A DNA stretch of 64,000 nucleotides, from the IMG/VR virus record IMGVR_UViG_3300047509_000156, positions 42,482 to 106,481 of that record; one strand, 5' to 3'. Within the stretch, counting starts at the first letter, position 1. Each line of letters starts with the position of its first letter. Shown piece by piece: positions 7,220 through 51,189 of this stretch. The notes under the pieces are model-generated. The model was not told the origin of the DNA, searched no databases, and saw nothing but the letters and a program-made list of their open reading frames with translations. A program made the position numbers and the translations under genes. Source of the stretch: a virus.

Positions 7220-7453
7220 TCAGACTGCCTTCTTTCGCACCTTGACCGTGACGACTCCAGCGACTGGGCCGTCAAACCGCCCCAACTCTTCCAGTTCGGG
7301 GAACTTCGCCAGGAGTTTCCGGACATAGCGATCCGCCTTGCCTGGGTCGATGTCCGTGCAGAAGGCGATCACTCCACCATTCATGGCCTGCTGGCCGATG
7401 ATCGTGATGCGGTCATCCTCGGGCAGATCGGCAATGTCGGCGAAGGCGGTCAT
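7220..7453 (-). CDS. Hypothetical protein
   Basis: ATG overlaps upstream stop. Confidence 0.55.
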   Translation of the reverse strand: MTAFADIADLPEDDRITIIGQQAMNGGVIAFCTDIDPGKADRYVRKLLAKFPELEELGRFDGPVAGVVTVKVRKKAV

Positions 7454-7659
7454 GATTGGCACCCCCGGATGCAGCGATAACCGTACAGACGATAATGGGC
7501 CATCTGTCCGCCACATTTGGGACAACAAAGGCCGGGGCCGTGTTGGACTTCTTCCTCATCCATCTCCTTGAGGATCGCGGCGGCCTTGGCACGGATCTCC
7601 TCGACGGTCAACTCGCGGCCCAGATCGGCGCCGCCGTCGCTTGGGTGGTACGGCCTCAT
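7450..7659 (-). CDS. Small Zn-ribbon protein
   Basis: CPKCGG...YRC; coupled ORF. Confidence 0.55.
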   Translation of the reverse strand: MRPYHPSDGGADLGRELTVEEIRAKAAAILKEMDEEEVQHGPGLCCPKCGGQMAHYRLYGYRCIRGCQS

Positions 7660-8105
7660 ATTCCCCCTCCTATGTGCTTCTCTGCTTCCTTACGGCGTTT
7701 CTCTTCCCAGAGAGCCTGTGCTTCTTCCGGCGTCGCGCCGACGGGGATCACGCGGTCGCCGTTCGCCTCGACCCAGTAGAACGCGGCCTGCTTGTGCAGG
7801 ACCCTACCGCAGGCAATGTCGGCCGCGTCGAGCGGCGCTTCCACGTAACTGAACAGGTCGAAGTGCGTGCCGCAGTGGACGCACATCGTCCCGCCGTAGA
7901 ATTTCGGATTTCTGGCGTAGGTCTCGCACAGGGCGAGCCCCATGTGCGTGTCGCAACCGCACTTCATGTGCCGGTAGGAGCGGTAGACGGGCATGACAAA
8001 ACCCTTGGCGCGTTCCTCTTCGGAGAGGACGAGATACGCTACCTGTTGCCCGTCTGGTTGATGTTCTCGCAGTCGCGGGTCTTTCGGATCGGTTGTCAGT
8101 CCCAT
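7656..8105 (-). CDS. Conserved phage Zn-binding hypothetical protein
   Basis: YLVLSEEERAKGFV...ETYARNPKFYGGT.C..C motif. Confidence 0.7.
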   Translation of the reverse strand: MGLTTDPKDPRLREHQPDGQQVAYLVLSEEERAKGFVMPVYRSYRHMKCGCDTHMGLALCETYARNPKFYGGTMCVHCGTHFDLFSYVEAPLDAADIACGRVLHKQAAFYWVEANGDRVIPVGATPEEAQALWEEKRRKEAEKHIGGGI

Positions 8106-8112
8106 CAGTACC

Positions 8113-9012
8113 TCAATTTGCGTTGACGTATGGCGCCAAGAGGCCCCCAGCTTCAGATGCCGTTATCGAATACTTGATCTGTTGCTGCATCATGGATAGC
8201 GCCGCGCCCTCATACGATAAATTTGAAAGCAGCGATCCAGCTCTTGTCGATGCCCTCAATTGCGCCACCATTCGCTCCGCTGCCAGGGTAATGTCGTAGG
8301 GTAGTTTATCCCAACCGGCACAGTACGTGACCATCAGGTTGCCCTGGCCGTTGATGGGCACCGTGGAGAGGTTGATCCCTGGCGCGTAATACTTGGTACT
8401 CCACGTCTGGTTAATCCGCCACAGACAACCGCAGCGCGAAGAAGAATCAGGCTGGTCCCTGTCGATCCAGTAGTCGTTGCCGTAGTAGAGTTGCGACGAT
8501 GGCGAAGAAAACGATCCCGGCACGCTGCCACCATATGACAGATCGTCCTGCACGATATTCGCCCCGAAGGAGAGCGTCGTCAACCCCGTCAACGCGGCAG
8601 CCTGCGACAGGGTGATCGTCCCCGTCCCCACCGTGGCAATCGTCGTCAGCGGCTGAATGGCAAACGAGCCGATACAGGATACCCCTTGGCCGGCGAAGAG
8701 GTACTTGGTACTGCTCATCCCCGTCACCACGCTCGATCCGGCGACCGTATTGCCCGTGTAGATGGGTGCCTGTACGGGCCGGTCGCGGAGGATAAGTGGC
8801 CCCTCCGAAGGTCCCGATCCCATCCAGGTGATCGGGTTGGCCGGGTTGGAGGCCAGCATTACCGTCCTTCCCAGGTGTTCCTGGATGGCTGCACTCACCT
8901 CGGCAATCAACTGGTTGAGGATGAAGTCGTAGAGCGTCTTGGAAGGCTGGATACCAAGGACGATCTTGACGGCCGGCAGGGAGGTACAGGGGTCTACGTT
9001 GGGGATGCTCAT
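8113..9012 (-). CDS. Head-tail adaptor/connector (gp6/gp15-like) with an inserted domain
   Basis: SL..VK..LGI, LI...SA.I...LGR, VTYCAGW..LP.DI..A, LLAPY motifs. Confidence 0.8.
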   Translation of the reverse strand: MSIPNVDPCTSLPAVKIVLGIQPSKTLYDFILNQLIAEVSAAIQEHLGRTVMLASNPANPITWMGSGPSEGPLILRDRPVQAPIYTGNTVAGSSVVTGMSSTKYLFAGQGVSCIGSFAIQPLTTIATVGTGTITLSQAAALTGLTTLSFGANIVQDDLSYGGSVPGSFSSPSSQLYYGNDYWIDRDQPDSSSRCGCLWRINQTWSTKYYAPGINLSTVPINGQGNLMVTYCAGWDKLPYDITLAAERMVAQLRASTRAGSLLSNLSYEGAALSMMQQQIKYSITASEAGGLLAPYVNAN

Positions 9013-9332
9013 CAGGACGAACCCACTTTATCTTTGAGAATGTTGCCTATGTGCCAGCCTTTACAGTCAGGGCATTCGTAGGCTTGCAGGACAAAGCCGG
9101 GTCGCTTGCCCATGTGAGAGATAGCTTTTTCAGCCTTCTCTTTGGATCGGTAGCAGGTTTTTCGCACACATCGGTGGTAGATATGTTGTAGCCTGCCATT
9201 ACTTCCTGCTGTTTCTCTGTGGTTGCCGGACAGGTTCAATATATCTGATGCTTTTTCCACAGAGCCACAGATCGATGTCCCGTTCCAGTTCACGCCGCGA
9301 GAACGCCGACGTGGCGAAGACCCATTCGCCAT
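9012..9332 (-). CDS. Hypothetical protein
   Basis: K.CY.S...A...AYECPDCKGWHI motif common in phages; start uncertain. Confidence 0.55.
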   Translation of the reverse strand: MANGSSPRRRSRGVNWNGTSICGSVEKASDILNLSGNHRETAGSNGRLQHIYHRCVRKTCYRSKEKAEKAISHMGKRPGFVLQAYECPDCKGWHIGNILKDKVGSS

Positions 9333-9431
9333 TCGCCATCACCCCATCGTCGGATCGGAAAACATACCCAACCCATACTCGCAGTTCCGAGACGAGCGGA
9401 TGGCGCTGACAGCGGATCTGGGTGACGTGGC

Positions 9432-11270
9432 TCACACGGTTCTCTCAAAGGACATCGCCGGGCACTTCTCATCCTCTACTGCCATCGTATCGATGACGCC
9501 CTCGGGCAGGTCCTGCTTCCTACGGACAAACCACAGCGAATCAGGGCCGTGGCGCAGGACGCCGTACTTCCTCTGGAACCATGTCGAAGCGTAGCCTTCC
9601 GTCAGCGCTTTGTTGACACCTTCCGAGTAGGTGTCATGGCCGCACAGAATCCCTCCCGGCTTGACGTTGATCATCCATAAATCGATGTCCCGCTGCGCTG
9701 ACTCAAAGGCGTGGTCGCCGTCGATAAAGACGACATCCGCCGAGTCGGCAGCAAAGCGCGCCGCCGCCTGGAGCGACGTTGATAGCCACGATTCGATGGT
9801 TAGATCATGACGCAATCGTCGCAATTCGTCGCTCTGTGTTTGCCATGTCTTCATGGCCTCGGCGGGATCGAACTTTTCATTGTCGCCAATTCCCAGGAAG
9901 GGATCGACACAGATCAGTTTGCAGCCCGCAGGAAGGGCCAGGGCGACCGCCGAGGCGCTACGTCCCATCCAGGTGCCCACTTCAACCCAGACGCCTCCTG
10001 GGGCCAATTCTGACGCTCTCTTGGCCAGCCAGAGGAGTTCAGCGTGCGTCATCCATCCTGATACCGAGATGGCGTAGAGCGCTGCTACCTCGGGCGCGAA
10101 GGCGTTATGCTGTGGTTCCAGGGAAGCGTGCGGCACGACCTCAGTGGATCGCCTGGCGAACTCGTGGTTGGCCACCAGCATCTCGACCGCCTTGCCAGTC
10201 ATCGTCTTGCCATTGACGTTCTTCTGGATCTTGTCCAGCAATTCGCCGCCGGAGCGAAGGTTTTCCATTTGCGTTTGCAGGATCGCGCCTGGTGCCCTAT
10301 CTGTCCGGTCGCGGGGAACGCTGGCCTCGTTCCTTCTCAGCAACGGCGTTCCCGTCGCTGGGCACAGTGCGAAGTGCGTCCAATGCCCGGCACGGTCCAC
10401 GTAGGGCTTGAATTCCATCTCGCCATGTGAGGACCCGCACGCCTCGCAGTGCGGCACCAGCAGCGACACGATCCCCGCCTGCGACATCTTTGTCTTCCGT
10501 GCCGATGTGAGATCCGAGTGGATCTTCCGCTGGTGCTTGTGGAGATTGTCGAGTTGTTCGGGTGTGACGATGGCCGGCTTGCCAACCCAGTTGCTTTTGT
10601 GGTGCTGTGCCCAGTTGTCCCAGTCCACGTAGAGCGGCACGCCGGCAAAGAACAATTTGCGGTGGAAACAGCACTCCTCAGTCTCCAGAACCTCCGTCCC
10701 CTTGGCGTTGTAGGTGTAGTCGTACCAGGGCGGCTGGATGATATCGAAGCACTTCCCAGAGTAGGCAATACACCCAGTCCCGAGGTTGGCGACCCGCTCG
10801 ATCCCCGTCCGCCGCGCCGCATCCTCGCGCCCCACGTTGACGACAAGATGCGTCTGGTCCTGTGTCCACGAGTGGATCAGGTTGTTCTCATCAATCGTTG
10901 GGTTCGATGCCGAACCCCACTCGAAGACACAGACATTCTCCTGCACCCCACCCATACAGTAGGGCAATCCGATCACAGCCGGTCCCTGATGATTTAGAAG
11001 GAAGTCAACCATCCTCTCGAAGCATCCATCCTGCACCCACATATCGTCGTCGATCATGAAGACAACATCGGGCTTGATCTGTCTGAGCTGATCGGCGGCG
11101 AAGTTTCTTGCCACATTGGTGGGGAATCGCTTGACGGGCATGTAAACGAGTTCGCCCAGGTCCTCGCGGAGCCGGCAGGTGATCTCGGCATCGACGTGAA
11201 AGCGCGACACCTCTTCGCGATGACTGCCTGAACCCAAGGGTTTGACGAGAGCGATGGTGTACTTGGCCAA
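9432..11270 (-). CDS. Glycosyltransferase (GT-A) fused to a Methyltransf_24-type SAM methyltransferase
   Basis: ARN...FMIDDD, LGTGC (GT-A); VEVGTWMGRSA, VFIDGDH, VKPGGILCGHD (MTase). Confidence 0.85.
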   Translation of the reverse strand: MAKYTIALVKPLGSGSHREEVSRFHVDAEITCRLREDLGELVYMPVKRFPTNVARNFAADQLRQIKPDVVFMIDDDMWVQDGCFERMVDFLLNHQGPAVIGLPYCMGGVQENVCVFEWGSASNPTIDENNLIHSWTQDQTHLVVNVGREDAARRTGIERVANLGTGCIAYSGKCFDIIQPPWYDYTYNAKGTEVLETEECCFHRKLFFAGVPLYVDWDNWAQHHKSNWVGKPAIVTPEQLDNLHKHQRKIHSDLTSARKTKMSQAGIVSLLVPHCEACGSSHGEMEFKPYVDRAGHWTHFALCPATGTPLLRRNEASVPRDRTDRAPGAILQTQMENLRSGGELLDKIQKNVNGKTMTGKAVEMLVANHEFARRSTEVVPHASLEPQHNAFAPEVAALYAISVSGWMTHAELLWLAKRASELAPGGVWVEVGTWMGRSASAVALALPAGCKLICVDPFLGIGDNEKFDPAEAMKTWQTQSDELRRLRHDLTIESWLSTSLQAAARFAADSADVVFIDGDHAFESAQRDIDLWMINVKPGGILCGHDTYSEGVNKALTEGYASTWFQRKYGVLRHGPDSLWFVRRKQDLPEGVIDTMAVEDEKCPAMSFERTV

Positions 11271-20183: not shown

Positions 20184-20477
20184 TCACGAGACCTGCGGCA
20201 AGGGTCGGACGTGCCAGCGTCCCTTGACCTGGAAGCCCCAGAAGACGTTGGCGTCGTGCCATCCCTTCTGCCACTGCCGGTAACAGTGCCGGTCGTCGGC
20301 GTGACTGTAGGGGTTGTCCGACAGCCCCTTACCGGCGATGCGGTCGCTGGACCCGCGATTGAACGCTGTCGCCATCTGTTCGGTGAGCGTTTCCTTGTAC
20401 TCCTGTTTCAATCCGCCCCCCCGGTCATCCGAGGGGGAATTCTCGTCATAGCCTGGCATCTTCTCGTGGTCGATCAT
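20184..20477 (-). CDS. Rmf/CrpP-like small protein
   Basis: AFNRG....AG....NPY........W.KGW motif. Confidence 0.6.
   Translation of the reverse strand: MIDHEKMPGYDENSPSDDRGGGLKQEYKETLTEQMATAFNRGSSDRIAGKGLSDNPYSHADDRHCYRQWQKGWHDANVFWGFQVKGRWHVRPLPQVS
20405..20441 (-). CRISPR. Solitary CRISPR-repeat-like unit inside a CDS
   Basis: AATTCCCCCTCGGATGACCGGGGGGGCGGATTGAAAC; 9-bp stem (1 G-U) plus ATTGAAAC end. Confidence 0.6.
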
Positions 20478-22945: not shown

Positions 22946-22991
22946 GGTTGTTTCCCAGGCAGCCGGCGGTTCTCCTTGCCCACTATCTCCA

Positions 22992-23091
22992 GTTTCAATC
23001 CACAGCCAGCCCAGCGGCCGGCTGCACCGTCTCATCAGTCCGATCAGATTGGTGGTTTCAATCCACGCCTAACCCACATGGCCAGGCGCAC
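22992..23091 (-). CRISPR. CRISPR mini-array (2 repeats, one 27-nt spacer), type I-C-like repeats
   Basis: GTGCGCCTGGCCATGTGGGTTAGGCGTGGATTGAAAC - CACCAATCTGATCGGACTGATGAGACG - GTGCAGCCGGCCGCTGGGCTGGCTGTGGATTGAAAC. Confidence 0.8.
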
Positions 23092-23116
23092 GATTCCGCC
23101 GGCTGCCTGTTGATCG

Positions 23117-24862: not shown

Positions 24863-24898
24863 GTTTCAATCCACAGCCAATATTGCGACCGGACGCAT
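24863..24898 (-). CRISPR. Solitary degenerate CRISPR repeat
   Basis: ATGCGTCCGGTCGCAATATTGGCTGTGGATTGAAAC; 27/36 identical to repeat 22992-23027. Confidence 0.65.
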
Positions 24899-25186
24899 CG
24901 GAAAAATCGCCCGCCGCCGGGTTGGACTGCAAACGACAAAGGTCTGGCGCCTCTCCAACGAGGATCGGCACTCCCAGCGGCGGGCGAAGTCACGTCTTAG
25001 GCTTATAAGTCTTCAGAGTGCCGTACACTCCACATCACCTAGCCTTTCCTTGTTTTGTGCTCGCCGGAGCATAGAAGAGAACCCCCAACCACGAGCGTCC
25101 TTTACCACCCTCCGGCGAGCCTGGCCTCTCGGGTGGCCTCGCGATGACCCGCGCCGGCAACGAGCCGGATAGTCTCCCGAGAAGGA

Positions 25187-25894: not shown

Positions 25895-28198
25895 CTAATC
25901 GGGGATTGGTTCGTCCGAGACGACGTAAACGTCTTCGTGTTGCGTTGGCGTACTGACCATTGACTGCGCCGCTCCCATAAGCGCCTTTTTGCGCTTGCCC
26001 TGCTGGGCAAGATGGTCCCAGCGCTCGCGGGGTAGGATGTTGTAGACGAGGGACAAATCAAGTCCGACAGCGTGCAGTTCATCCCTGTTTCTTGACTCGT
26101 TGATCCTTTTGAGACAATCGGCTTCAAAGACGGCAGGTTCCTTCCTGGCACCGATGACCAGGGAGGCGAGAAAACGCGACGATGCCTTGCTGGTGGCGAT
26201 GCCGAGATAGGCCATCAATTTGCATTGGCCGGGCGAAGGACCGCTCGCCTGCCAGGCATCCTCCTGAATGCCGCAGAGTGCAGCCACTCTGGCGGGGTCT
26301 GTCCGCAACCGCAAAAGTCCGATCATCCGGCCTGCCAATTTTCTGCTGGGCCGTGCCTCTAGTTTCATACCCAGCGAGTCGATGAATTTCATCTGACCAT
26401 CAGAGGCCAGGTTTGCCGGTGTTTCAAAAGGAGTGCTGTAGCCGATTTCGTTGACCGAGTAGCTGACCTCGGCGCCGGCACGGCTGCGCCGTTCAAACTC
26501 CTCGCGAGCCGCCTGTTCGGCTTCTTCGCGCTCAATACGGATACGCTCCTTGTCGACAGCATCCTGTCTCTTGGCCTCCTCGATGATTTCTTGAACGTCC
26601 ACAGAATCGTCCACGCCGGCAGCGGCGAGCAGCTTTTCCGCTTTCTCCTTGACCTCGTCCGGCAATCCCTCGGCGTAGATTTCAATGGTCGAAGCACAGT
26701 CGGCCAGGCCGGTTATGCCGACCAGATCGACGATGAGGGCGTTGGGCTTTTCGCTTGCCGCGATAGCCGCGCGCCGAGAGGTAGCGTCCGGGTACGTGTG
26801 TAGCTTCTTGGCGAGTGACCGCGCAGGTCGGCAGGCTCGTCCTTTCATTTGCTCGGCAAGAGAGGAGGCTTTTTTGCTGACGGGCCTGAGAACGGCGACA
26901 CAGGACACATCGGGGTCGTTGTAGCCCTCGCGACAAAGGCCGCAGACAGAGAGGAACTGAAACTGGCCGTTCTGGTGGCCTTCATAAACTTGCTTCCTCT
27001 CGTGGGGCGGCGAGGAGCCGTCGAGTTGTCGGGCGTTATCTCCCGACTTGGTGATACTTTCCTTTTCGATCATCTCGCCACACTTACAGACGGCGCCATC
27101 GCCGATCATGGCGGAGGGATACCATCGCGTCAGGCCACAGTCACAGCGAGCCTGGACGCGGGCGTTGATGTAGCGGGCGACGTTCTTCGACATTTCCACA
27201 CCGGGAGAAAAGATGAGCGTGCGCCGGTCTTCGACCAGATCGAGCAGCGGTTCCACCATTGCCGCCAGGTGTTCCTCCAGCGCTCTTTCCAGTGCCGCAT
27301 CGTCGTAGTCGCCATCAGTGCCAAAGAGTTCCGGGTTGCGAAAATCGACGCCGTCCACCTCGATGTAGCGCTGGATATAGGGCACAGCGTAGCCGTCCTT
27401 GACGGCACATCGTTTGACCGTACTGAAGAGGGGAAAGTCGATGGCGATGCCTGGGAATTGCTTGTGGCCGATGGACACTTGATCGAAGCGTTTGGGCGTT
27501 GCCGTCATGCCGAGGCGGCGATGGGAGGGGTTCTGGCTGAACCAGTCGGTAATGTGCCCCACCGAGGGTAATTTGTAGGCGTGCCGGTGTGCCTCGTCCC
27601 AGATGACCAGCCAGTCGAGTCGCCAGTCGAACTTATGCAGGCGGCTGACGATGTTGCCGCTCACTTCGGGCCGCTGCATCTTTTGCGTCATGTCTTCGAG
27701 GACGGCGGCGGTATCTCCTGCTTGCTCGATGTGCCGCAGATAGGTCTTGGCCATGCGTTTAGTCATGGCGCCAACCGAGGTGATGCCATACTTCGCCAAC
27801 TTGTCGAGTTGCTCTGGAGTGGGCGGTGATTCTCGCAAGAGGCTGGCGCGGCTGGCGACCACAATGCGCGGAACGTCGTCGTGGGGAACCTTTTCCGCCT
27901 CCATCTCGATGCCCGGCTCGATGCCGAGAAAGTCACGGATCTCCTGGGAAAACTGCCAGACAAGCTGTTTCTCGTAGGTGACGACGAAGATATGCGCCTT
28001 GTTGCTGCGGCGCATCCAGGTATCGCCAATGAGACAGGCGACGGGTGTTTTACCCGTGCCCGTGGCCATCCGCAACAGTACGCCTTCGATACCGCTGTCC
28101 CAGTGACGAAAAGCCACGTCGTGCGCTTCGGTCTGGTAGTCGCGCGGCGAGAGGCGAGTCGATTTGATGGACTTCTCAAACAGGTCTTGCTGTATCAC
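25895..28198 (-). CDS. SF2 (DEAH) helicase
   Basis: PRDYQ, ATGTGKT, DEAH, GMTAT, EGYNDP, QMKGR. Confidence 0.93.
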   Translation of the reverse strand: MIQQDLFEKSIKSTRLSPRDYQTEAHDVAFRHWDSGIEGVLLRMATGTGKTPVACLIGDTWMRRSNKAHIFVVTYEKQLVWQFSQEIRDFLGIEPGIEMEAEKVPHDDVPRIVVASRASLLRESPPTPEQLDKLAKYGITSVGAMTKRMAKTYLRHIEQAGDTAAVLEDMTQKMQRPEVSGNIVSRLHKFDWRLDWLVIWDEAHRHAYKLPSVGHITDWFSQNPSHRRLGMTATPKRFDQVSIGHKQFPGIAIDFPLFSTVKRCAVKDGYAVPYIQRYIEVDGVDFRNPELFGTDGDYDDAALERALEEHLAAMVEPLLDLVEDRRTLIFSPGVEMSKNVARYINARVQARCDCGLTRWYPSAMIGDGAVCKCGEMIEKESITKSGDNARQLDGSSPPHERKQVYEGHQNGQFQFLSVCGLCREGYNDPDVSCVAVLRPVSKKASSLAEQMKGRACRPARSLAKKLHTYPDATSRRAAIAASEKPNALIVDLVGITGLADCASTIEIYAEGLPDEVKEKAEKLLAAAGVDDSVDVQEIIEEAKRQDAVDKERIRIEREEAEQAAREEFERRSRAGAEVSYSVNEIGYSTPFETPANLASDGQMKFIDSLGMKLEARPSRKLAGRMIGLLRLRTDPARVAALCGIQEDAWQASGPSPGQCKLMAYLGIATSKASSRFLASLVIGARKEPAVFEADCLKRINESRNRDELHAVGLDLSLVYNILPRERWDHLAQQGKRKKALMGAAQSMVSTPTQHEDVYVVSDEPIPD

Positions 28199-29238
28199 TA
28201 TTTGACCCCCATCTGATCGTAGGCGTAGCGCGTGACGCGGCCCGTCTTGTGGCATTGCTTGCAGCCTTCTCCCCGGCAGAGAGGACAGGCACAGTGGCAC
28301 TTGGCCGAGCGCACTGTCTCACAGACCGACTTGAGTTTGTTGATGGCGCTCTTGCGGCGGTCCATGTCAAGGAGCCAGGGATCGTCCGGCATCGTCTCGG
28401 TGAACTTCATGAGTTGCCGGCACCACGACTCCAGTTTACTGTTGAGCCGCTTGATCTGTTGTTCGGTCGTTTCATCTTCGGGCGCTTCCGGCTCCTGGTT
28501 CAAGTCTTCATCAGTCTGCTCGGATAGCGTCTTGCTCTTTTTTTTGCCGCTGCCCTTGCCGAGATTGCGCTTCCTTGCCTTTTTACGCTTGTCTTCACAG
28601 GAGGCACAACCGACCACGACGCCGTTCTTCTTACACTGCGGGCAGAGGATCGGTTTCCCACCACCGGAAATCTGAGCAATCGTCTGCCCTGACTGGCCGT
28701 TGAGGATGACGGAACGGGCGCCATCGCCTTGCTCGGCAGCGGCAGCATCGACGCCGGCAGCGAACTGAGTGGCGTTCTTGACTGTGCGCTCAGAAACGCC
28801 GTGCTCTGAGGCCAGTTCTGCCGCCGTTTTATTTCCTCCCTGTTGGGGAGGAATCGGGCAAAATTTGCCCGATTCCTCCCCAACAGGTGCGCTATTGCTA
28901 CTGCGCGTAAGTTCTCTCTCCTTACCGAGATAGTACAATTTTTGCTCTGGAGTCGCGTTTCGCCTTCCGAACTGGTTTTGGATAATCCAGAGCAATGCCG
29001 CTTCGCGTGAAGGTAGCTCGATTTTCCTTGTAGGAATTTTGAGATGCTTTTCCTCTGCAATATCGAACCGCGTGTGCCCGTCGCCAAGAATCGGTTCGTC
29101 TTCTCCTGGCAGTTGAAGGAGGACAAGCGGGTCGATGTGCTGGCTCTTTTCGATCTCAGCTTCCAGGGTGCTGCGCTCCTCTTTGGTCAGGGCGGGGAGA
29201 TAGGACTTGAACTCCTGATCGATCTTGAAGGATTGCAT
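28198..29238 (-). CDS. ParB-like domain protein
   Basis: KID.EF...LP.LT.EE, DGHTR, NQFGRRN, HTH GVSERTV. Confidence 0.8.
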   Translation of the reverse strand: MQSFKIDQEFKSYLPALTKEERSTLEAEIEKSQHIDPLVLLQLPGEDEPILGDGHTRFDIAEEKHLKIPTRKIELPSREAALLWIIQNQFGRRNATPEQKLYYLGKERELTRSSNSAPVGEESGKFCPIPPQQGGNKTAAELASEHGVSERTVKNATQFAAGVDAAAAEQGDGARSVILNGQSGQTIAQISGGGKPILCPQCKKNGVVVGCASCEDKRKKARKRNLGKGSGKKKSKTLSEQTDEDLNQEPEAPEDETTEQQIKRLNSKLESWCRQLMKFTETMPDDPWLLDMDRRKSAINKLKSVCETVRSAKCHCACPLCRGEGCKQCHKTGRVTRYAYDQMGVK

Positions 29239-42692: not shown

Positions 42693-43691
42693 GCGTACAT
42701 CCCACCACGCCAGACTGCCGGCCACGCTGATGTACTTTCCGTAGCCGGGCGAGAGGAGCATCTTGAAGATCGCATAGATAGCCGAGTAACCGAACAGCGT
42801 GATCGGCCGGCAGATTTCGCCGCGACGATTGGTCGTCAGTCTCTTCCGCGTACCTCTCTGGAGCGTGTGGCTTTCGTAGTCCGGCGTCCATCCAGGCACA
42901 GTGCGCCAGGATGGAGCGGTCAAAGCCAGGGGGGATGGGCGGCCATTCCGTGTAGGAGAGGGTGAACGCCGGTTTGCACTCGGGTTCCTCCAGCACCGCC
43001 AACCCCTGGGCATGGACCTTCTCCAGCCAGTCGCTGGCGATGACCAGATGAAGACGCTCGTGTGGCTCATACCTCTTCTCGCGGAAGTGATTCTGCCTCA
43101 ACTTGCTGGGTGAGCCGAAGAATAGCTCGATCTTCCAGTGCGGCGGGAAGAAGTGCAAGCCCTCGATCACCGTGAGGGTGTCGCGGTAGCGCTGGGCGAG
43201 GACGGATTGCTTGGCGGCGCGGGTGCTCACGACGTTCGCCCTCCGAAGTCCCATTGGGTGAGCCGAGACTTGTTCGTCGGGCTGGCTAGCTCGGGCAGGT
43301 TCAGCGCCACAATCGCCTGCTGGTGTAACTCCTTGAGCGCCAACTCCGCACTCGACATGATACACTGCATCCCGCCCCAGCGCACGAGGCAGCTCGATGC
43401 TTTCTTGAAGGTCCCATCCGCCGAGCGGTGCGGGCCGCGAACGCACCTTGCGTGGAGGATTCGGTAAGCCGCATCGGCGCCGGGGCAGGGGACCGGATCG
43501 GCGTAGAGGACAAAGAGGTCCTCGCGCAGGGGAACTTGCCTGACCCGGGTGCGCAGGTCGGCGCCCTCAACGCCCCGGTCTACCTCATGGACGCCGCCGA
43601 AGAAGTGTCCGCGCATACTCGCCGTGCTTGAGGCGTACCGTGCGAAACGTTGGCCTGTCTCGCACGTCCCATTCGTGCATGTCAGTGATTC

Positions 43692-43967
43692 TCATGGTTC
43701 CTCTGGAATTGGATCGTAAGCGTGTTTGGCATACCCGCTTTCGTGGTAGTACGCTTCCGTATGACGCCACAACGTGAGAAGTTCGTCGGACCAGTGCGCG
43801 TTGCCGTGCGACAGCATTTGTGATACGTGTCTGCAAGCATTCGCCAGGTCTTCAGCGGTGTGCCAAGGACGTTTGTTCGTGCGGATCGCTTCTTCAAGTT
43901 CCGCTCGCTTCGTGCGCAGGAGCGTTTTCAACCGCTCCTCTTCACCCTTCAGGGAATCTTCGCTCAT
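43692..43967 (-). CDS. Hypothetical protein
   Basis: MSEDSLK.. with GAGG RBS. Confidence 0.5.
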   Translation of the reverse strand: MSEDSLKGEEERLKTLLRTKRAELEEAIRTNKRPWHTAEDLANACRHVSQMLSHGNAHWSDELLTLWRHTEAYYHESGYAKHAYDPIPEEP

Positions 43968-44449
43968 GATGTCCTCACAATACCCACAAGCAAGGAATAG
44001 CCCGCGTTCGTCTGGAGGGAATTGCACCCTCTGGCCTTGACGTTCGCCAGTACGCATGAGTAGCGAACAACCTTGCTCGTAGGTGTCTCATCGCCGGCCC
44101 CGTCGCCGGCCCTTCTTGTGGTTGATCTTCTTGTACGAATGGCGGGGGCGGGGTGCTGGGCGGTCGATGCGGAGAAACGGCCCTGCGCCGACTGCCAGAA
44201 TCGGTGGATGATCGAGAGCCCCTCCTTCTCCACGGTCTGCCACCAGTCCTCGGGGAGGACAGCCTGGACGTGGAGGGTGTGTTCCCCGCACGACAGGATC
44301 ATGTCGGGAGAGCCCACGCTCACCTGGACACGCGCTTTCCAACTCGGGCCGCGCAAGGGCGCATCGATACCCACGAGTGCCGGCAGGCAGCTTTCCGCCC
44401 AGGTCTGGACCAGGCGGGTGGCCAGGGTGAGGTCGTGTTGCGAGGGCAT
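43964..44449 (-). CDS. Hypothetical protein
   Basis: Shares a DW..V...GL motif with the ORF near 42900-43150. Confidence 0.45.
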   Translation of the reverse strand: MPSQHDLTLATRLVQTWAESCLPALVGIDAPLRGPSWKARVQVSVGSPDMILSCGEHTLHVQAVLPEDWWQTVEKEGLSIIHRFWQSAQGRFSASTAQHPAPAIRTRRSTTRRAGDGAGDETPTSKVVRYSCVLANVKARGCNSLQTNAGYSLLVGIVRTS

Positions 44450-44452
44450 GTG

Positions 44453-44668
44453 TCACTTTCCTGTCGTCTTGCGGCGGTATGCCTCTCTTTTCCAGGCGTT
44501 CACCCGGCGACGTCCTCTGGGCGTCTGCCGCAGTCGGGCGCTGTAGTCATTCATACAAGCCTTGCACCAGCTACGCGCCCTGCCGTTTTGGCGGTAGAAG
44601 TCGTCGAGTGGAAGGACTCGGAGGCAGTGCTTGCACTCCTTGGTCAGCGTCAATGTGTCGTCCCTCAT
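44453..44668 (-). CDS. Small Zn-binding protein
   Basis: K.C..C....PL..FY....S.CK.C. Confidence 0.65.
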   Translation of the reverse strand: MRDDTLTLTKECKHCLRVLPLDDFYRQNGRARSWCKACMNDYSARLRQTPRGRRRVNAWKREAYRRKTTGK

Positions 44669-44952
44669 TGCTGTTTCTCCTTGGTTAGCGTCCGCGAATC
44701 TGGTCGCACAACTCGATCAATTCCTTCAGGCATGGCGTCTGAGCGGCATCTGAGCGCCGCAGAAAGTCGGCCACGGCACATGCCTTCTCGAAGAGGTCGT
44801 CGCGTTGGCTACTGGCGAAACTGATCGACACCTCGCGCAACTCCTTAGCCAACTTGTCGGCTCGGCTCGACAGAGAGGCCAGGTAGGTACAGGCGTTGCT
44901 GTAGGGGTTCTTCACGGGGTACTCCAGGGGGGGGGGGATGGGTGATGGTTTG

Positions 44953-45771
44953 CTACGCCGTGGCGATAGAGAGCGGCTTCTCTTCACCGGGAATCGGGAA
45001 CAGTTCCTGGTCGGTCGTCACCAGTTTGGTGAGCCTCTTCTGCTCCAGAAAAGCGACGAGTGCCGCCTCAGCCTGGCGGTAAAGTTCTCGCCGCGACCCT
45101 GATTGTTCTGGTAGGACTTCAAGGACGAAGTTTCTCAGGAGGATCGCCGCCTCGTCACCGGGGACCATCATGCCACTCTGGAGAACTTCGCCGAAGCGTT
45201 CCAGCATCTTCTTCTTGGCCTTGCCGATGGCAGCGCGGACCACGACGGCGCGAATCGAAGAAGAAACGAACTTGCCGCTGGGAAGAATCTTGTGCGCCAG
45301 TGATACCTGCTCGCCGTAAGTCTGCATGAACTCGTCCACTTCCTTGTCTGAGATCGCACAGAATCCCTTCATGGCCGGGCCGTAGAGGAGTCTGCGAACA
45401 GTGGGGCCACAGCCGCGCGGCCAGTCCTTGTCGGCGATGCGGAAGTTGTCGTCCGTCGAACGTCTCTGGCAGCCGTCGAGAACGAGGAAAGAATCCTTGG
45501 GCAGGCCGTGCATGACGACCGAGTCGAAGGAGACGCCAGCTCGGGAGCAGGCAGTCAGTCGTTTCTTGCCGTTGATCAGGTTGTGGTCCACGCCGAAGGA
45601 GATGGCCTGGTCGGACAACTCCCATCGGCCGTTCTCCATGTCGGACTGGTACTGCGCCACCTTGCCCTCGTTGAGCCGGCGGTTGCGCGGATGGTCCCGC
45701 GTCAGCCAGTTCTCGGCCATCTGTGGGGTGATGGTCATGATCTCTACCGTTGGTTGCTGCCGTCGCGTCAT
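44953..45771 (-). CDS. ParB-like N-terminal domain phage protein
   Basis: ITP.MA..WL...NR.L....V..Y..DM..G.W; LING..RL.A. Confidence 0.8.
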   Translation of the reverse strand: MTRRQQPTVEIMTITPQMAENWLTRDHPRNRRLNEGKVAQYQSDMENGRWELSDQAISFGVDHNLINGKKRLTACSRAGVSFDSVVMHGLPKDSFLVLDGCQRRSTDDNFRIADKDWPRGCGPTVRRLLYGPAMKGFCAISDKEVDEFMQTYGEQVSLAHKILPSGKFVSSSIRAVVVRAAIGKAKKKMLERFGEVLQSGMMVPGDEAAILLRNFVLEVLPEQSGSRRELYRQAEAALVAFLEQKRLTKLVTTDQELFPIPGEEKPLSIATA

Positions 45772-45918
45772 AGCGGGTTCTCCTGGGAAAAACGGTTGCC
45801 TTGTTCTCTCTCGACGTTATACTATACGCAGTTGTCTCCTTCTTGTGACAGAGAGATCGGTAGAATCCAGAGAATATCGGTCACAGTCCGGATGAATCGG
45901 CGTATATCAAGTGTCGCC

Positions 45919-45955
45919 ATTTTCCCCCGGCCAAAATCCGGGGGCGGATTGAAAC
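45919..45955 (+). CRISPR. Solitary CRISPR-repeat-like unit in a 5' leader
   Basis: ATTTTCCCCCGGCCAAAATCCGGGGGCGGATTGAAAC, between promoter 45880-45907 and the RBS. Confidence 0.7.
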
Positions 45956-45977
45956 AAGAGAGAAAGGACGGTGAAAC

Positions 45978-46584
45978 GTGGAGACGGCAGAACCCAAGGA
46001 ATCCTGGCGGATTGTCTGGCGAGCGGCGGCGGATTTGATCTCTCTGGAGGAACTGCAATTTATTCAGGTGACATTGGCGAGCGATGATCCGAGATGGGTC
46101 CAGGGCGCCACGACCAGTCCTCCCCCCTTTGCAGGCTGTGGCAGATTGGCCCGTGGAAGCCGCCTGTCTGTTCGGCCTATGTGGAGTGTTCAGCGGCGGC
46201 GGTTGGGGAGAGGCAATCGTCTCGGACACTGAGGATCGGTTTGCGAGACTCTGTTTCGACGTGGACCAGAAACTAGGCGAGCCTGCCGGCGTGAGATTTT
46301 TGCTCAACTGGCATGATGAGGCGCCCCGTGAGGAGGTCCGCCAGTCCTTACTCACAGAGATTACGGACGCCATCTCCTCCCGACTGTCCTCCCTCCGCGA
46401 CCGTCTCGCCAATCTGGGCGGGCAGCGTATCCTCGCCGAGGTGGAGTTGCAGGACTTCCTCGCGGAAGGTGACACGGGACTCTCGCCGGACCCGTCCCGT
46501 GGCAAGGCGGCACAGGAACGCCTCGACACCATCAACGCCGAGTACGCACAGGTGCGCGAGGAATACGCTAGGGCTACGGCGTGA
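45978..46584 (+). pseudogene. Planctomycete-type hypothetical gene split by a +1 frameshift
   Basis: ESWR.VWR..DDPR.VQGATTSPPP continues as LQAVADWPVEAAC in another frame at the C6 run near 46122. Confidence 0.65.
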
Positions 46585-46652
46585 ATTGTTGTCACAACTA
46601 CGAGAATATGCCGTATATCAGGGTGTCGCCCGGAAGCGTAAGGAGAAGAACC

Positions 46653-46925
46653 GTGAGCAAGAAGACAGCGAAAGGTGTTCGCTCAAAGGTAACTCTCTAC
46701 ATCGACAGCGGCGCCGTGCAGGTCTTTGCTGGACAGTTGCATCCCGCCGTGTTCACCGAGGAGGAAGCCTGCCGCATTCTCCTAGCGCATAAGGATCTCC
46801 TTGCCGCGTGTCGCAGCGCCCTGACACTCGTTGCCACAATGCAGAGTATGCCGCCGTCTGTGGATTGCATTGAGAGCGTTCTCGAGCAACTCGAATCCGC
46901 CATCGCCAAGGGAGAATCGCCGTGA
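46653..46925 (+). CDS. Hypothetical protein
   Basis: Own promoter at 46591; AAGGAG RBS; DLLAAC..A...AIAK motif. Confidence 0.6.
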   Translation: MSKKTAKGVRSKVTLYIDSGAVQVFAGQLHPAVFTEEEACRILLAHKDLLAACRSALTLVATMQSMPPSVDCIESVLEQLESAIAKGESP

Positions 46926-47142
46926 TCCAGACTGTGAATAAACTTGTCGGCAAGATCGCCGCCCGTGCCGCCGAGTTGGCCAACATGAAAATCAACCGGC
47001 TCCGTCTGGAGGCACCAGCCTACGAGGAGAGCGTCGCTGCTCATTTGAGGATCGCCAAGTTGGATTTCCCTGACCGAGGAAGACTCATCGAGGCGATTCT
47101 TCTGGAGGAGTTCAGCGAGGAGTTTGATCGGAGTATTGATCC

Positions 47143-47454
47143 ATGACACCCACCACCCCCATCCGTGGCCTCCACGATGTCACGCGAATCGCCAGTGGCT
47201 ACGGCATCCCCTGGCAGGTCGCCCTGACGCCCGAATGTTTCGAGAGGTGTATTCGCGTCGGCGTCTTCTGGAGCAAAGAAGAGGACCGCCTCGCCGACGT
47301 GATTTACGCCCTTGCCGTCGCCCTGAGAAGCTGCCGCTGGTGCTGGCGTATCTACGTACCCTCGGGGACACGAGTTCCCGACGTGGTTAAACTGCGGGCA
47401 CGGCGGGAGGAGAATAACGAGGAAGTACGAATTATCGTGGACCTGGAGGAGTGA
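47143..47454 (+). CDS. DUF6573-like protein
   Basis: DVT..A...GI...VALT...E..RL.DV. Confidence 0.55.
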   Translation: MTPTTPIRGLHDVTRIASGYGIPWQVALTPECFERCIRVGVFWSKEEDRLADVIYALAVALRSCRWCWRIYVPSGTRVPDVVKLRARREENNEEVRIIVDLEE

Positions 47455-47652
47455 TGAACAAATACGAACTGGCAGCCAAGATCGGCGATCTGGCTGAAGA
47501 GGCTGGAGAATCCTACGCCGCCGTTGTCCTGCTCGCCCTGGCCGGAGCGGTAATGATTGGACTGGAGAGAGAGTTGGCCGATGTTTGTGTTCTCGTCTCG
47601 CAGAGACAGAAGGATTTCTGCGACAGAAGTCTCAAGGCAAAGGATAACTAGC

Positions 47653-48141
47653 ATGGGAGACCGTAGCCGCTTCCGACTGTTCGCTCAACTGATCGCCGAG
47701 AGGTTCCCTGACCGCAAGGCGCGAATCGCCGACGTGGCCTGTGGCAAGGGGCAACTGCACAGTGAGTTGCACCTCCTGGGTTATCGCAACGTCGTCTCCT
47801 GGGACAAGCGGAAGAGGAACCTGCGGCGACTTTCAGTGGGATTCCGCTACGAGTGGTTCGACTACCGAAACGCTCCCAGGGGTTACGATCTGGTGGTTGG
47901 GATGCACCCCGACGAGGGCACGGACCACATAATCCTGTACGCCGCCAAGCACAAGGTTCCTTTCCTCGTCTGCCCCTGCTGTGTGCTTCCAAGTGCTGCG
48001 GAGTACGGCGGGCAGCGTGCCTGCTACACGGACTGGATGCGTCATCTCGTCGGTTTGGCACGTTCCCGAAGGATGACGACCGACACCGTATCTTTGCCGA
48101 TGGATGGACGAAAACAGGTAATCGTGGGAGGCTGTCGATGA
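47653..48141 (+). CDS. SAM-dependent methyltransferase-like protein
   Basis: ADVACGKG.L, VVGMHPD, PF.V.PCC. Confidence 0.8.
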   Translation: MGDRSRFRLFAQLIAERFPDRKARIADVACGKGQLHSELHLLGYRNVVSWDKRKRNLRRLSVGFRYEWFDYRNAPRGYDLVVGMHPDEGTDHIILYAAKHKVPFLVCPCCVLPSAAEYGGQRACYTDWMRHLVGLARSRRMTTDTVSLPMDGRKQVIVGGCR

Positions 48142-48473
48142 GCGTCATGAACCTGCGCTGGCGTTCCGATTCCAAGGTGGAACTGACCCTGTGCTGGCCG
48201 GACGGTCGCAGTTTCGTTACCGTTGCCACGAGAAACGGTGATCACATTGACATCGACACGCCTTATTTCCCCGACAAAGGCGACATCGATTCAGTCGAGG
48301 CGATACGCGACGTGACGCAGTGGTTGGCGCTGGGAGCCTGCTGTGCCCAGATGCTTGTCGGGTTCGACCACGCCACACTGGAAGATCTCGTCGCCGGCAG
48401 GAAGATGCTCCAGATTCCCAACCCGATCATCTCCATCACAATCGGGGTGGTGGACGCTGTGGAGGATAAGTAA
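48138..48473 (+). CDS. Hypothetical protein
   Basis: Coupled ORF. Confidence 0.5.
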   Translation: MSVMNLRWRSDSKVELTLCWPDGRSFVTVATRNGDHIDIDTPYFPDKGDIDSVEAIRDVTQWLALGACCAQMLVGFDHATLEDLVAGRKMLQIPNPIISITIGVVDAVEDK

Positions 48474-48973
48474 TGTCAGAACGATTCATGACGCCCGAGA
48501 ACGGGCTTTGCTCCTTTTTGCCGAAACGAAACGATTTGAGGTATTTAAGAGTAAAAAAGGAGCAAAGCCCCGAGAACGCCGACGCCTTCGTGGATTTTCC
48601 GCCCGCCCGCAAGGAATGCCCGAATCATCTTCCCGATGGGAGGCTTTGTGCCCGCTGCCACGGTTTCGGCGGCTGGAACCTGGAATTGAACGCCTACCCG
48701 AAAACGAAGGAGCAAGAAGATGCGATCCGCGACAACCTTCGCAGGTGTCCGGTGACGAACCTGCCCGGTCCCGACATGACGAACGCCGAGTTCCGGCATC
48801 ACTATGTCCACTTCCGCGCCAGTTGCTCCAACTGCAACGGCTGGGGTTGGGTCAAGAAGGAACAGGGCGATCATGTCCACGAGTGGGTGGAGAGCCGCAA
48901 TGTGGGGAAATGCCTGAACGAGTACACCTGTAAGACGTGCGGTGAAAGGCAGACGGTGGATTCGTCGGACTAG
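48473..48973 (+). CDS. Zn-finger protein
   Basis: C..C.G.G motifs. Confidence 0.65.
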   Translation: MSERFMTPENGLCSFLPKRNDLRYLRVKKEQSPENADAFVDFPPARKECPNHLPDGRLCARCHGFGGWNLELNAYPKTKEQEDAIRDNLRRCPVTNLPGPDMTNAEFRHHYVHFRASCSNCNGWGWVKKEQGDHVHEWVESRNVGKCLNEYTCKTCGERQTVDSSD

Positions 48974-49356
48974 CGGATGGTATTGCGCCCGGCCTGCTGG
49001 TCGGGTGTGGATTGAAACGCCTGAAGCGCCATGATCTCCTGTTGCTTCCTCTCGATCTCCCTGGCCTTCTCCTCGCTCTTGCGGAGTTCCGCTGCCTCGA
49101 TGGCGGCGGCCAGGTCATCGGCACAGTGCCCGATCAGTGCCTTGGCCTGGTCGATCGACAGGGTGATCTCTTCGTGGGTCGCCGTGGGTGTCGGTCCGGA
49201 GTGGTGCATAAGAGGAGGAAGGGGCCGGCGGATCTTGATGGACGTACCGGAGGCGAGGATCAAGATGGCGTCGGGAGGGAGGGCTTTCTTGGCCATGTGG
49301 GACAACCTTACGGGTGGGGGCGGAATCGGCTCTGGGAGGCGGTAAACGTGGTTCAT
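48970..49356 (-). CDS. Hypothetical protein
   Basis: Coupled ORF; C-terminus encoded by the antisense of a CRISPR-like repeat. Confidence 0.55.
   Translation of the reverse strand: MNHVYRLPEPIPPPPVRLSHMAKKALPPDAILILASGTSIKIRRPLPPLMHHSGPTPTATHEEITLSIDQAKALIGHCADDLAAAIEAAELRKSEEKAREIERKQQEIMALQAFQSTPDQQAGRNTIR
48983..49018 (+). CRISPR. Solitary CRISPR-repeat-like unit
   Basis: TTGCGCCCGGCCTGCTGGTCGGGTGTGGATTGAAAC; 9-bp stem with 2 G-U pairs. Confidence 0.7.
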
Positions 49357-49553
49357 TCCTTCGGCTTCATGATGTCGGCGTACATGGACTTGGCGTCCTC
49401 GTTGAGGGAGTCGGCCAGTGACTTACCGCCCTCGGCGCGACGCTGCTCGGAGTATCCAATTGCAACTGCTTGTGCTTCTGGTTTTCCCGCCCGGCGTTCC
49501 GTGGCGATGTTCTCGGATCGTGCTTCGTCCGAAGGGGAATGGTTAAGCGGCAT
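49353..49553 (-). CDS. Small phage protein
   Basis: MPL....S..A.S.NI..E..AGKP..QAVAI motif. Confidence 0.7.
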   Translation of the reverse strand: MPLNHSPSDEARSENIATERRAGKPEAQAVAIGYSEQRRAEGGKSLADSLNEDAKSMYADIMKPKE

Positions 49554-49902
49554 GGCTGGCTCCCTCTTTCTCTGGGGCGACGACGGCGAGCAGGTGGCTC
49601 TCCGGCATGATAACCAATGTTTTGCCGTTATGCTCAACCTCGGAGCCCTGGTAGCGCGGGTAAAGGACGGTGTCGCCGACCTTAACCGTCAGAGGGTAGC
49701 GGCCTTCCGTCGCGTATCGCGTCTGGGTCTTGGCGGAGAGCATCTCGGGCACTACGAGTCCTGGCCCAACAGCAACCACGGTGCCGCGCTGCGGCTTATC
49801 CTTGGCCGTATCAGGGATGTACAGACCGCTCTTGGTCCGGTCGGGTGCCTCCAGAGGATCGATGACAACGCGGTCGTTCAGAGGAGAGATCGGGTAACTC
49901 AT
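49543..49902 (-). CDS. groES: Co-chaperonin GroES
   Basis: PLNDRVV, TKSGLYIPDTAKDKPQRG.VVAVGPG, VKVGD.VLY..Y.G. Confidence 0.95.
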   Translation of the reverse strand: MSYPISPLNDRVVIDPLEAPDRTKSGLYIPDTAKDKPQRGTVVAVGPGLVVPEMLSAKTQTRYATEGRYPLTVKVGDTVLYPRYQGSEVEHNGKTLVIMPESHLLAVVAPEKEGASHAA

Positions 49903-49984
49903 GGAATTACTCCTGGTTTCGTGGTCACAGGTTACTACGAGTAGCGTATATGACTCGTCGCCCGTCAGCAACACGGAGAGAAAG

Positions 49985-50370
49985 ATGAATCACATTGAAG
50001 CCTTGCGGAATCTCCAGCAGGAGACTGGGCACCCCGGTCACGAACTGGGTACGTTCCTGCTCCAGAACAGCAACTCGCTGCCTTACCTCGCGGAGCAGTT
50101 GAAGTTTCAATCCCCTCCTTCGCGGGGCACTTCTGCGGACTCAAGGAGAAGAACGATCTGGACGCACACCGCTGGCGCGATTACGAATTGGTGGAAGTCG
50201 GATGGATTAACGGCGTGAATCCGAAGACGGCCCGCTCGCTTGTTGAGGCCGGCGTTCTGGTCGAGGACATGCCTTTCGATATGGACGCGAACACCAACTC
50301 CCATGTTCGCCTACCACGGCTGGAAGAGGTGTATCCGAGAATCGGCAAGCCGCTGATCGATGTTCTTTGA
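49985..50370 (+). pseudogene. Gene apparently interrupted by a CRISPR-like repeat
   Basis: Own promoter at 49924; MNHIEAL..EQLK in one frame and KEKNDL..VEAGVL in another, flanking the repeat. Confidence 0.5.
50104..50140 (-). CRISPR. Solitary type III-like CRISPR repeat
   Basis: GTCCGCAGAAGTGCCCCGCGAAGGAGGGGATTGAAAC, 37 nt with CCCC/GGGG stem. Confidence 0.7.
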
Positions 50371-50703
50371 CTACGGCAGACGAATCTGCCCGCCCAGTAA
50401 TCGCCTCAAGGCGTGAATAATCTCTGCCCGCCGGGAACGCCGGTTCTCGGCAGCCCTGGCGTCCACCCGCGATAAGAAAGCGAGGCTTATACTTCTGAAC
50501 GTGCATCCCAGCAGTCCCTCATTCTCCTCGCTGTCGAGGTCCACGACGGACAGCGGCGGCCGGTCGAGGTGGGACGCGACGGCAGCGAGGACGACGGCCT
50601 TGCGGGTTCTTCCCAGCCGGGCCGCTTCCCGATCAAGGCCGGCGACGATCCAGGAGGGGATCTCGACATAGAGCATCTTCAGGCAGGCTTCGCGTTGCAT
50701 GAG
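50371..50703 (-). CDS. Tandem ribbon-helix-helix protein
   Basis: LD.EA.RLGRTR..V and RVD.RA....RSR..EI; start uncertain. Confidence 0.6.
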   Translation of the reverse strand, partial: LMQREACLKMLYVEIPSWIVAGLDREAARLGRTRKAVVLAAVASHLDRPPLSVVDLDSEENEGLLGCTFRSISLAFLSRVDARAAENRRSRRAEIIHALRRLLGGQIRLP

Positions 50704-50811
50704 TCCAGCATATACAAAGCGCCCGAACCCAAGAAGGAGAAATACCAATGACAGCGACTCAGAAGATCCAGCGATTTCGCTCAAGATTGCCCTCAAAGAA
50801 GCCAAATAGCC

Positions 50812-51189
50812 ATGACCATTACTGACCTGGAAAACCTGCTCGCCCTGGTCCTAGCGGACGGACCCGGCGCCGACGTGCAATTGATCGCTGCCGACGCGGC
50901 AGAGGACGCCGACCGTCCCTTCCTGGCTGAATGTCTGCGCTGGATGCACGCCGGCAAGAAGTGGCCAGATCATGGTGAACATTTGCCAGATGGAGCAACG
51001 TGGAGGTGGTATGAAAGCAGCGATCACCCCGAATCGTCGCGTCTCCCACAATGCGAGGGAGAGTTTGTTAAGTTCTGGCGTTCTTGGAAATGGCATGATT
51101 CGGTTGCTACTGCTATCCGTACCTTGTGGAGCGATTGGGAGACTGCCCGCAGGAGCGGATGGCAGCCGGAAAACCTGTCACAACCCTGA
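50812..51189 (+). CDS. TIGR02996-like protein
   Basis: LLALVLADGP..DVQLIAADAAEDA. Confidence 0.65.
   Translation: MTITDLENLLALVLADGPGADVQLIAADAAEDADRPFLAECLRWMHAGKKWPDHGEHLPDGATWRWYESSDHPESSRLPQCEGEFVKFWRSWKWHDSVATAIRTLWSDWETARRSGWQPENLSQP

Follow-up and report, generated by a model that had tools for sequence, protein, structure and literature searches.

Viral solitary repeats that lie behind promoters can act as Racrs, and one of these, RacrIC1, shares a transcript with acrIC5 (Camara-Wilpert et al. 2023, PMC10651486). Solitary repeat units (SRUs) of this kind were first listed by Faure et al. 2019 (as cited in PMC10651486), and the SRUfinder rule asks for at least 90% identity to a catalogued repeat (PMC10651486). 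RacrIF1 is the only Racr to have been studied biochemically; its active product is the RNA of ~70 nt upstream of the cut (PMC10651486). In type I-C systems, cutting is carried out by Cas5c, which cleaves at the 3' base of a 7-bp stem and leaves a 5'-OH end. Recognition depends chiefly on the cut site and on the 3' tail of 11 nt, and the enzyme tolerates changes in the loop and 5' flank. After cutting, it stays on the tail, which becomes the 5' handle of the crRNA and forms the end of Cascade where assembly begins (PMC8524198).

Here we describe U1, a 37-nt repeat in a phage genome, as an SRU and Racr candidate with an unusually clean layout of promoter, repeat and ribosome site. Like SRUs and Racrs, U1 is one repeat copy in a cas-less virus, directly behind a predicted promoter. 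As with RacrIC1, its repeat type matches that of the likely host group (type I-C), and its predicted RNA is shared with a protein-coding gene. Unlike RacrIC1, which comes after acrIC5, U1 precedes its gene, within the 5' leader and 22 nt from the start codon, and unlike RacrIF1, with its ~70 nt active upstream piece, it would yield an upstream piece of only ~31-34 nt. It also departs from known Racrs in its phage-specific, ECF41-like promoter, in having a neighbour gene that is no known anti-CRISPR, in being at most 89% identical to any known repeat, and in being known from sequence alone. Set against described type I-C repeats (PMC8524198), U1 is solitary rather than part of an array, has a loop of 7 nt, and represents a 37-nt planctomycete variant (tail beginning CGG, longer 5' flank) as opposed to the canonical 32-nt repeat (tail beginning UGG).

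Two other systems bear comparison. As in Cracr and CreA-CreR (bioRxiv 10.1101/2024.10.29.618823), a phage repeat could here load host Cas proteins with non-immune RNA. Unlike Cracr and CreA, U1 has no second repeat or target match, and the position of the guide is taken by a ribosome site and coding sequence. Qi et al. are said to have found in 2012 that engineered Csy4/Cas6 cleavage sites in 5' UTRs insulate gene expression. U1 resembles such insulators in placing a repeat hairpin between the predicted transcription start and the ribosome site, where cutting would leave a short, standard 5' end; unlike these synthetic devices, which come with a supplied nuclease, it would rely on a host immune nuclease for any such role.

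The repeat unit in its cassette leader

The window, meaning the whole stretch of 64,000 nt that we analysed, has a GC content of 58.7% and corresponds to bases 42482-106481 of a virus record. That record is complete, spans 106,481 bp and carries direct terminal repeats. The phage DNA probably came from a soil metagenome. A sequence-only reading of this DNA had proposed a run of cassette promoter, 37-nt repeat, some 22 nt containing AAAGGA, and GTG start codon. We found this arrangement borne out to the base, with correct coordinates (Table 1). The -10 core CGTAT lies at 45901-05, 10 nt separate the promoter end from U1, and 22 nt (45956-45977), AAAGGA included, separate U1 from GTG 45978.

Table 1 Features of the U1 locus and further repeat units, in window positions
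Feature	Position	Strand	Details
Cassette promoter	45880-45908	+	-35 GTCACA 45880-85, 15-nt spacer, -10 CGTATATC 45901-08
GTCGCC motif	45913-45918	+	recurs 5-8 nt past the -10 in most or many cassette leaders
U1, solitary 37-nt type I-C-like CRISPR repeat	45919-45955	+	R1 covariance model, Rfam CRISPR-DR9 (weak), hairpin fold
Shine-Dalgarno-like AAAGGA	45963-45968	+	9 nt upstream of GTG 45978
Downstream gene, ~201 aa, family without annotation	45978-46584	+	start GTG 45978, frame broken in C-run
Next cassette promoter	46591-46616	+	7 nt past the stop of the downstream gene
U2, sister unit, same CCCCC-stem class as U1	20405-20441	-	R1 41.6 bits, E 3e-9
U3 and U4, unlike units 27 nt apart (mini-array)	22992-23091	-	intergenic gap
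U5, different stem class	48982-49018	+	Rfam CRISPR-DR9 34 bits, E 7e-4; R1 22 bits
U6, weak stem	24863-24899	-	15 nt upstream of ATG with GGAGG ribosome site
Seventh unit, 37 nt	50104-50140	-	Rfam CRISPR-DR10, 32.4 bits, E 0.002

The promoter in front of U1 belongs to a family. The motif GTCACA-N15-CGTA[TC] is present 26 times in the 106-kb genome, and almost all copies point towards a start codon with a Shine-Dalgarno site; examples are found at 46591, 49924, 52643, 52937, 54924 and 60065 on the plus strand and at 2787, 5554, 25550, 33547, 45849 and 63541 on the minus strand. Nearly every small gene in the right-hand 18 kb is fronted by this ECF41-like promoter, GTCACA-N15-CGTAT, and (G)TCGCC(C) and CCCGCCAAGGAG often come after it. 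The motif resembles the ECF41 signature, TGTCACA-n16-CGTC (PMC3426412). An open frame of 1,211 aa in the phage carries a Sigma70_r2 domain near its C-terminus (G000 7276-10896). Given 26 copies of an ECF41-like motif and a phage-encoded Sigma70_r2 protein, we infer that the phage's own sigma factor drives the cassettes. A scan for sigma-70 promoters and intrinsic terminators across 45700-49300 returned nothing above chance. Promoter geometry alone predicts a transcription start at ~45911-45915, upstream of the repeat (5-8 nt before U1 and 10-13 nt before its stem), with GTCGCC marking the predicted start region. Among RNA sequencing runs, none was found to contain the region 43000-51000.

Leader lengths set the U1 cassette apart from its sisters. 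From the end of CGTAT to the start codon, cassettes mostly measure 30-42 nt, with a median of ~36 nt, against 72 nt in the U1 cassette, which is why we regard U1 as a clean, modular insert of 36-37 nt. Subtracting the 37-nt unit leaves a leader of 35 nt, an ordinary length. U1 falls precisely where the conserved GTCGCC element ends and the ribosome-site region begins, and the other 25 cassettes are without such a hairpin.

U1 itself reads as a 5' flank ATTTT, a stem arm CCCCCGG (45924-30), a loop (45931-37) and a second arm CCGGGGG (45938-44). Its fold is a hairpin with 7 bp in the stem and 7 nt in the loop; the 11-nt tail that follows, CGGATTGAAAC (45945-55), is single-stranded, and the predicted Cas5c cut falls after 45944. 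Against R1, a covariance model that we built from 47 distinct real repeats, U1 scored 40.9 bits (E ~4e-9 in 64 kb); the last 15 positions of R1 were fixed by the search pattern taken from U1, and its 5' UUUCCCCC and stem are independent. The best identity of U1 to any real repeat compared was 33/37, with a repeat from a Fimbriiglobus MAG. At 89% against the repeats compared, U1 is thus borderline, just below SRUfinder's 90%.

The 10-mer GGATTGAAAC occurs seven times in the genome, all within the window, where base composition would lead one to expect ~0.1 copies; a reversed-pattern control gave no copies in the genome. U1 is solitary, with no other R1 or Rfam repeat match within 2.9 kb, and an R1 search to E 10 with filters off detected no second or degenerate repeat downstream of it. 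It is also intergenic, with the divergent gene 44953-45771 (-) on one side and the downstream gene on the other. Folding predicted the ribosome-binding site to be unpaired in the full and the processed leader alike, which ruled out a riboswitch-like masking of that site. The 9-mer GGCGGATTG, with which the repeat tail starts, appears again 50 nt downstream at 46006-46014, inside the gene. This second copy falls on conserved W-R-I-V codons and is probably due to chance.

GTG 45978 is the true start of the downstream gene: homologues align from there, and coding potential follows its frame until ~46110, after which it follows the frame of ATG 46084. Homologues are single ORFs across both parts (ME.WR.VWR...DDPR..QG.TT.PPP.Q...DWPVEAAC...). 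The switch of frame, together with these single-ORF homologues, therefore defines the gene as 45978-46584 with one extra base in the C-run 46122-46127. The extra base in this six-C run may reflect a genuine frameshift, a programmed +1 shift or a mistake in the assembly. It is present as well in a 25x contig of the probable source run, which is not independent support and which argues against a one-off assembly slip.

The encoded protein has no Pfam, PHROG or NCBIfam match. Its AlphaFold model is helical and confident (pLDDT 95), and a Foldseek search with this model returned no similar structure in PDB or BFVD. Members of the family, with the motifs ME.WR.VWR...DWPVEAAC...DQ.LGEPA, are found in planctomycete records as well as in 15 or more viral contigs, whose GC content ranges from 50 to 74% (L101-L115, P0002-P0006). 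None of 15 viral homologues carries a repeat unit upstream of the gene, and one has a unit ~500 nt downstream. U1 is therefore not part of the gene's conserved control.

Type I-C repeats of Planctomycetota and the probable host

Tandem copies of U1's 15-nt end, sought in the genomes of 185,579 species, turned up at 70 loci, nearly all of them in Planctomycetota (Gemmataceae, Fimbriiglobus, Gemmata, Singulisphaera, Isosphaeraceae, Pirellulales and Phycisphaerae). The array repeats are 37 nt long, with the consensus GTTTCCCCCGGCCT....GCCGGGGGCGGATTGAAAC, and are separated by spacers of ~35 nt. Cas8c/Csd1, Cas7, Cas4 and Cas1 adjoin the arrays at the three loci checked, and Cas5d genes lie 5-8 kb from arrays in three genomes, which together identify the repeat class as type I-C. 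This class is nearly confined to Planctomycetota type I-C loci.

The tail of U1 is identical to that of the 47 real repeats behind R1. U1 keeps the 7-bp stem length and the 11-nt 3' tail, and departs from real repeats in the loop and the 5' flank. It presents the features of a type I-C substrate, with a hairpin of ~7 bp, an 11-nt tail, and conservation of the cut-site-proximal NGG and the tail. In all seven units of the phage the 10-mer GGATTGAAAC is single-stranded and invariant, and the stems differ, as one would expect of units recognized by Cas5c. For a type I-C repeat, the enzyme to consider is Cas5c rather than Cas6. Searching the complete 106-kb phage genome gave no Pfam match to the Cas5d or Cas6 families, and on this basis we call the phage cas-less. 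For the second stem class, arrays ending in GTGGATTGAAAC were absent from 151 genomes of the Fimbriiglobus MAG's order at a gap range of 55-80, a range that would miss canonical 32-nt arrays.

The host is probably a Gemmataceae-like planctomycete. Three lines of sequence evidence point there indirectly: sharing of the TIGR02996 domain, look-alikes of the downstream protein, and Fimbriiglobus as the source of the nearest repeat. TIGR02996 is a Gemmatales-type domain that is expanded in Gemmata-like bacteria. The phage gave three matches, two Gemmataceae MAGs gave 34 and 8, and Singulisphaera gave one, whereas 14 control genomes gave none. Most look-alikes of the downstream protein come from viruses or planctomycetes. 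Among 1,374 spacers from arrays of the same class, none matches the phage beyond 16 nt.

A possible decoy and its alternatives

The sequence-only reading had offered two roles for the processed RNA, a crRNA mimic or an mRNA whose translation depends on host Cas proteins. The former gained ground: U1 matches Planctomycetota type I-C repeats, keeps the parts that Cas5c recognizes and stands alone in a cas-less phage behind a credible promoter. The latter found no direct support, with a ribosome-binding site that is unpaired either way and no upstream repeat in the 15 homologues. We therefore consider U1 to be, with about an even chance, a solitary repeat unit that serves as a Racr-like RNA decoy for host CRISPR proteins and is co-transcribed with an mRNA.

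Under the decoy reading, U1 would have been copied from the 37-nt type I-C repeats of planctomycetes and inserted into the 5' leader of one cassette. A phage ECF-type sigma factor would start transcription ~5-8 nt upstream of U1, and the RNA would fold into its 7-bp hairpin, allowing host Cas5c to cut at the 3' base, after 45944. Cas5c would then stay on the 11-nt tail CGGAUUGAAAC, now heading the remaining RNA, and Cas7 and Cas8c could load on RNA that guides nothing useful, much like a non-targeting crRNA. The DNA copy of the loaded RNA would be preceded by a repeat end, not a PAM; by general type I rules, the phage DNA would thus look like part of an array. Host Cas proteins would in this way be diverted from real crRNAs, with U1 acting as one of six or seven decoy units in the phage. 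Because the upstream piece would measure only ~31-34 nt, inhibition should come from the downstream, tail-bearing RNA. Several points count against the decoy reading: inhibition by the downstream piece would depart from the RacrIF1 mechanism, Cas proteins covering the ribosome site would burden the very mRNA that carries the decoy, no match to the phage was found among the 1,374 spacers, and U1 is identical to none of the real repeats compared (33/37 at best).

If U1 is active, the range of RNA anti-CRISPRs would widen to take in the phages of Planctomycetota, hardly any of which have been studied, and a 37-nt variant of the type I-C repeat, and the decoy would be the leader of an mRNA rather than a separate small RNA. 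This raises the question of which cleavage product inhibits a Cas5c-based system and whether the mRNA behind it pays. The 25 sister cassettes without a repeat provide matched natural controls in the same phage.

Several other explanations have to be weighed against a decoy, beginning with a leader in which U1 couples the downstream cassette to host type I-C activity. We consider such coupling unlikely, although it may coexist with decoy action. It could take two forms. Cutting by Cas5c might give a 5'-OH mRNA of changed lifetime, or Cas5c and Cas7 on the tail might cover the ribosome site (9-14 nt past the tail) and the start codon (23 nt), making output fall or rise with the level of Cas proteins. 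Since no fold masks the ribosome site, covering by Cas loading is the only concrete form of the sensor idea, and the unpaired state of that site in the full and processed leader speaks against a fold switch. The distance of 22 nt between U1 and the start codon favours coupling, as does the persistence of Cas5c on the 5' handle, the origin of Cascade assembly (PMC8524198). The placement of U6 fits too, as do units of the same class that sit 0-12 nt before long ORFs in the viral contigs L100, L083 and L085. In a compact phage genome, however, any insert between genes would be expected to lie near a start codon, and U2 (in an ORF) and U5 (at the end of a gene block) are placed where translation control is impossible. 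The downstream gene is itself frameshifted, and its 15 viral homologues do without an upstream repeat. That host type I-C proteins naturally set the stability or translation of the downstream cassette's mRNA strikes us as quite doubtful. Were it so, phage gene expression would read out active CRISPR immunity in the infected cell, and coupling, not shortage of space, would account for the recurrence of such units immediately ahead of start codons in phages that are not related.

The same RNA might instead be a crRNA-like guide of the Cracr/CreA type, with the tail and the next 20-35 nt targeting a host promoter (that of cas genes or of a CRISPR-guarding toxin) so that Cascade silences it. Viral crRNA-like RNAs of this kind have been reported (bioRxiv 10.1101/2024.10.29.618823), and elsewhere in the phage two repeats flank a spacer of 27 nt. 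At U1, however, the guide position consists of the ribosome site, the start codon and the first codons of a conserved protein and is thus constrained by coding, and no second or degenerate repeat lies downstream. The first 23 nt past U1 had no match with up to 3 mismatches in five planctomycete genomes that carry the repeat class, a weak objection, since the true host need not be among them. We judge a guide to be highly improbable. A role independent of Cas proteins, in which the repeat likeness is inherited and irrelevant, would have the 5' hairpin stabilize the mRNA or bind an unrecognized phage protein. Such hairpins commonly protect bacterial mRNAs, and many phage proteins are of unknown function. 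An invariant 10-mer combined with differing stems fits recognition by Cas5c, however, and not a generic stabilizer; no RAMP-family protein was found in the phage, and the other 25 cassettes manage without a hairpin. We give this explanation little credence.

Equally improbable, in our view, is that U1 has no RNA role and is a leftover of recombination with a host array or a patch of homology acting at the DNA level. Roles in recombination and integration have been suggested for solitary repeats (cited in PMC10651486), and single-protein scans of viral contigs for both flanking genes found no close relative of the phage in which conservation might show. A search of viral and metagenome contigs for the promoter followed by 30-55 nt and GGATTGAAAC gave only low-GC chance matches. 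In two DNA runs we saw only the contig that is probably the source, together with fragments, at low depth, from a near relative; these fragments do not cover 45670-46470. A relic or patch fails to explain seven units, six of them in sense, with intact stems of differing sequence and an invariant tail, and it fails to explain the exact fit of U1 between promoter element and ribosome site. Runs of identity to real repeats extend only ~16-20 nt, short for homologous recombination.

Further repeat units and neighbouring genes

The remaining units of the phage occupy varied positions. Rfam gave sub-threshold CRISPR-DR9 matches for six units and CRISPR-DR10 for the seventh, and six of the seven have the same orientation as local transcription. 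U2 falls within codons 1-25 of ORF 20184-20477 and is therefore coding, not intergenic; this ORF is preceded by a strong ribosome site and overlaps the gene upstream through ATGA. The U3/U4 pair is enclosed by a 14-bp inverted repeat (22956-23109, -), and the 27-nt spacer between the two units had no match at up to 3 mismatches in five planctomycete genomes. U5 begins 9 nt past the last gene of U1's co-directional block and overlaps the 3' end of the convergent gene 48970-49296. The seventh unit is antisense inside a plus-strand cassette gene starting at ~49985, and may either imitate another type of repeat or have arisen by chance.

Cassette genes neighbouring U1 have no Pfam, PHROG or NCBIfam annotation, except for a sub-threshold match to Methyltransf_32 (E 1.4e-4, 22 bits, cut-off 27) in ORF 47557-48141 (+). 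That ORF overlaps called small genes, and gene calls within 47450-48140 are uncertain. Elsewhere in the window, a 49-nt near-perfect palindrome at 28839-28887, within or at the edge of the called ORF 28198-29238 (-), drew spurious Rfam microRNA matches on both strands.

Solitary units of U1's class are also carried by other high-GC viral contigs, including two (L091 and L087) in which they lie behind a promoter-like site. In some contigs, paired solitary units of the type I-C class stand ~2.5 kb apart (L083 840-855 and 3352-3367; L094; L096; L087 1023 and 3499). The first unit of L083 lies 11 nt before a 163-aa ORF beginning MKRDGLTDKQRKF. Such pairs recall U1 and U5, between which lies a gene block of 3 kb.
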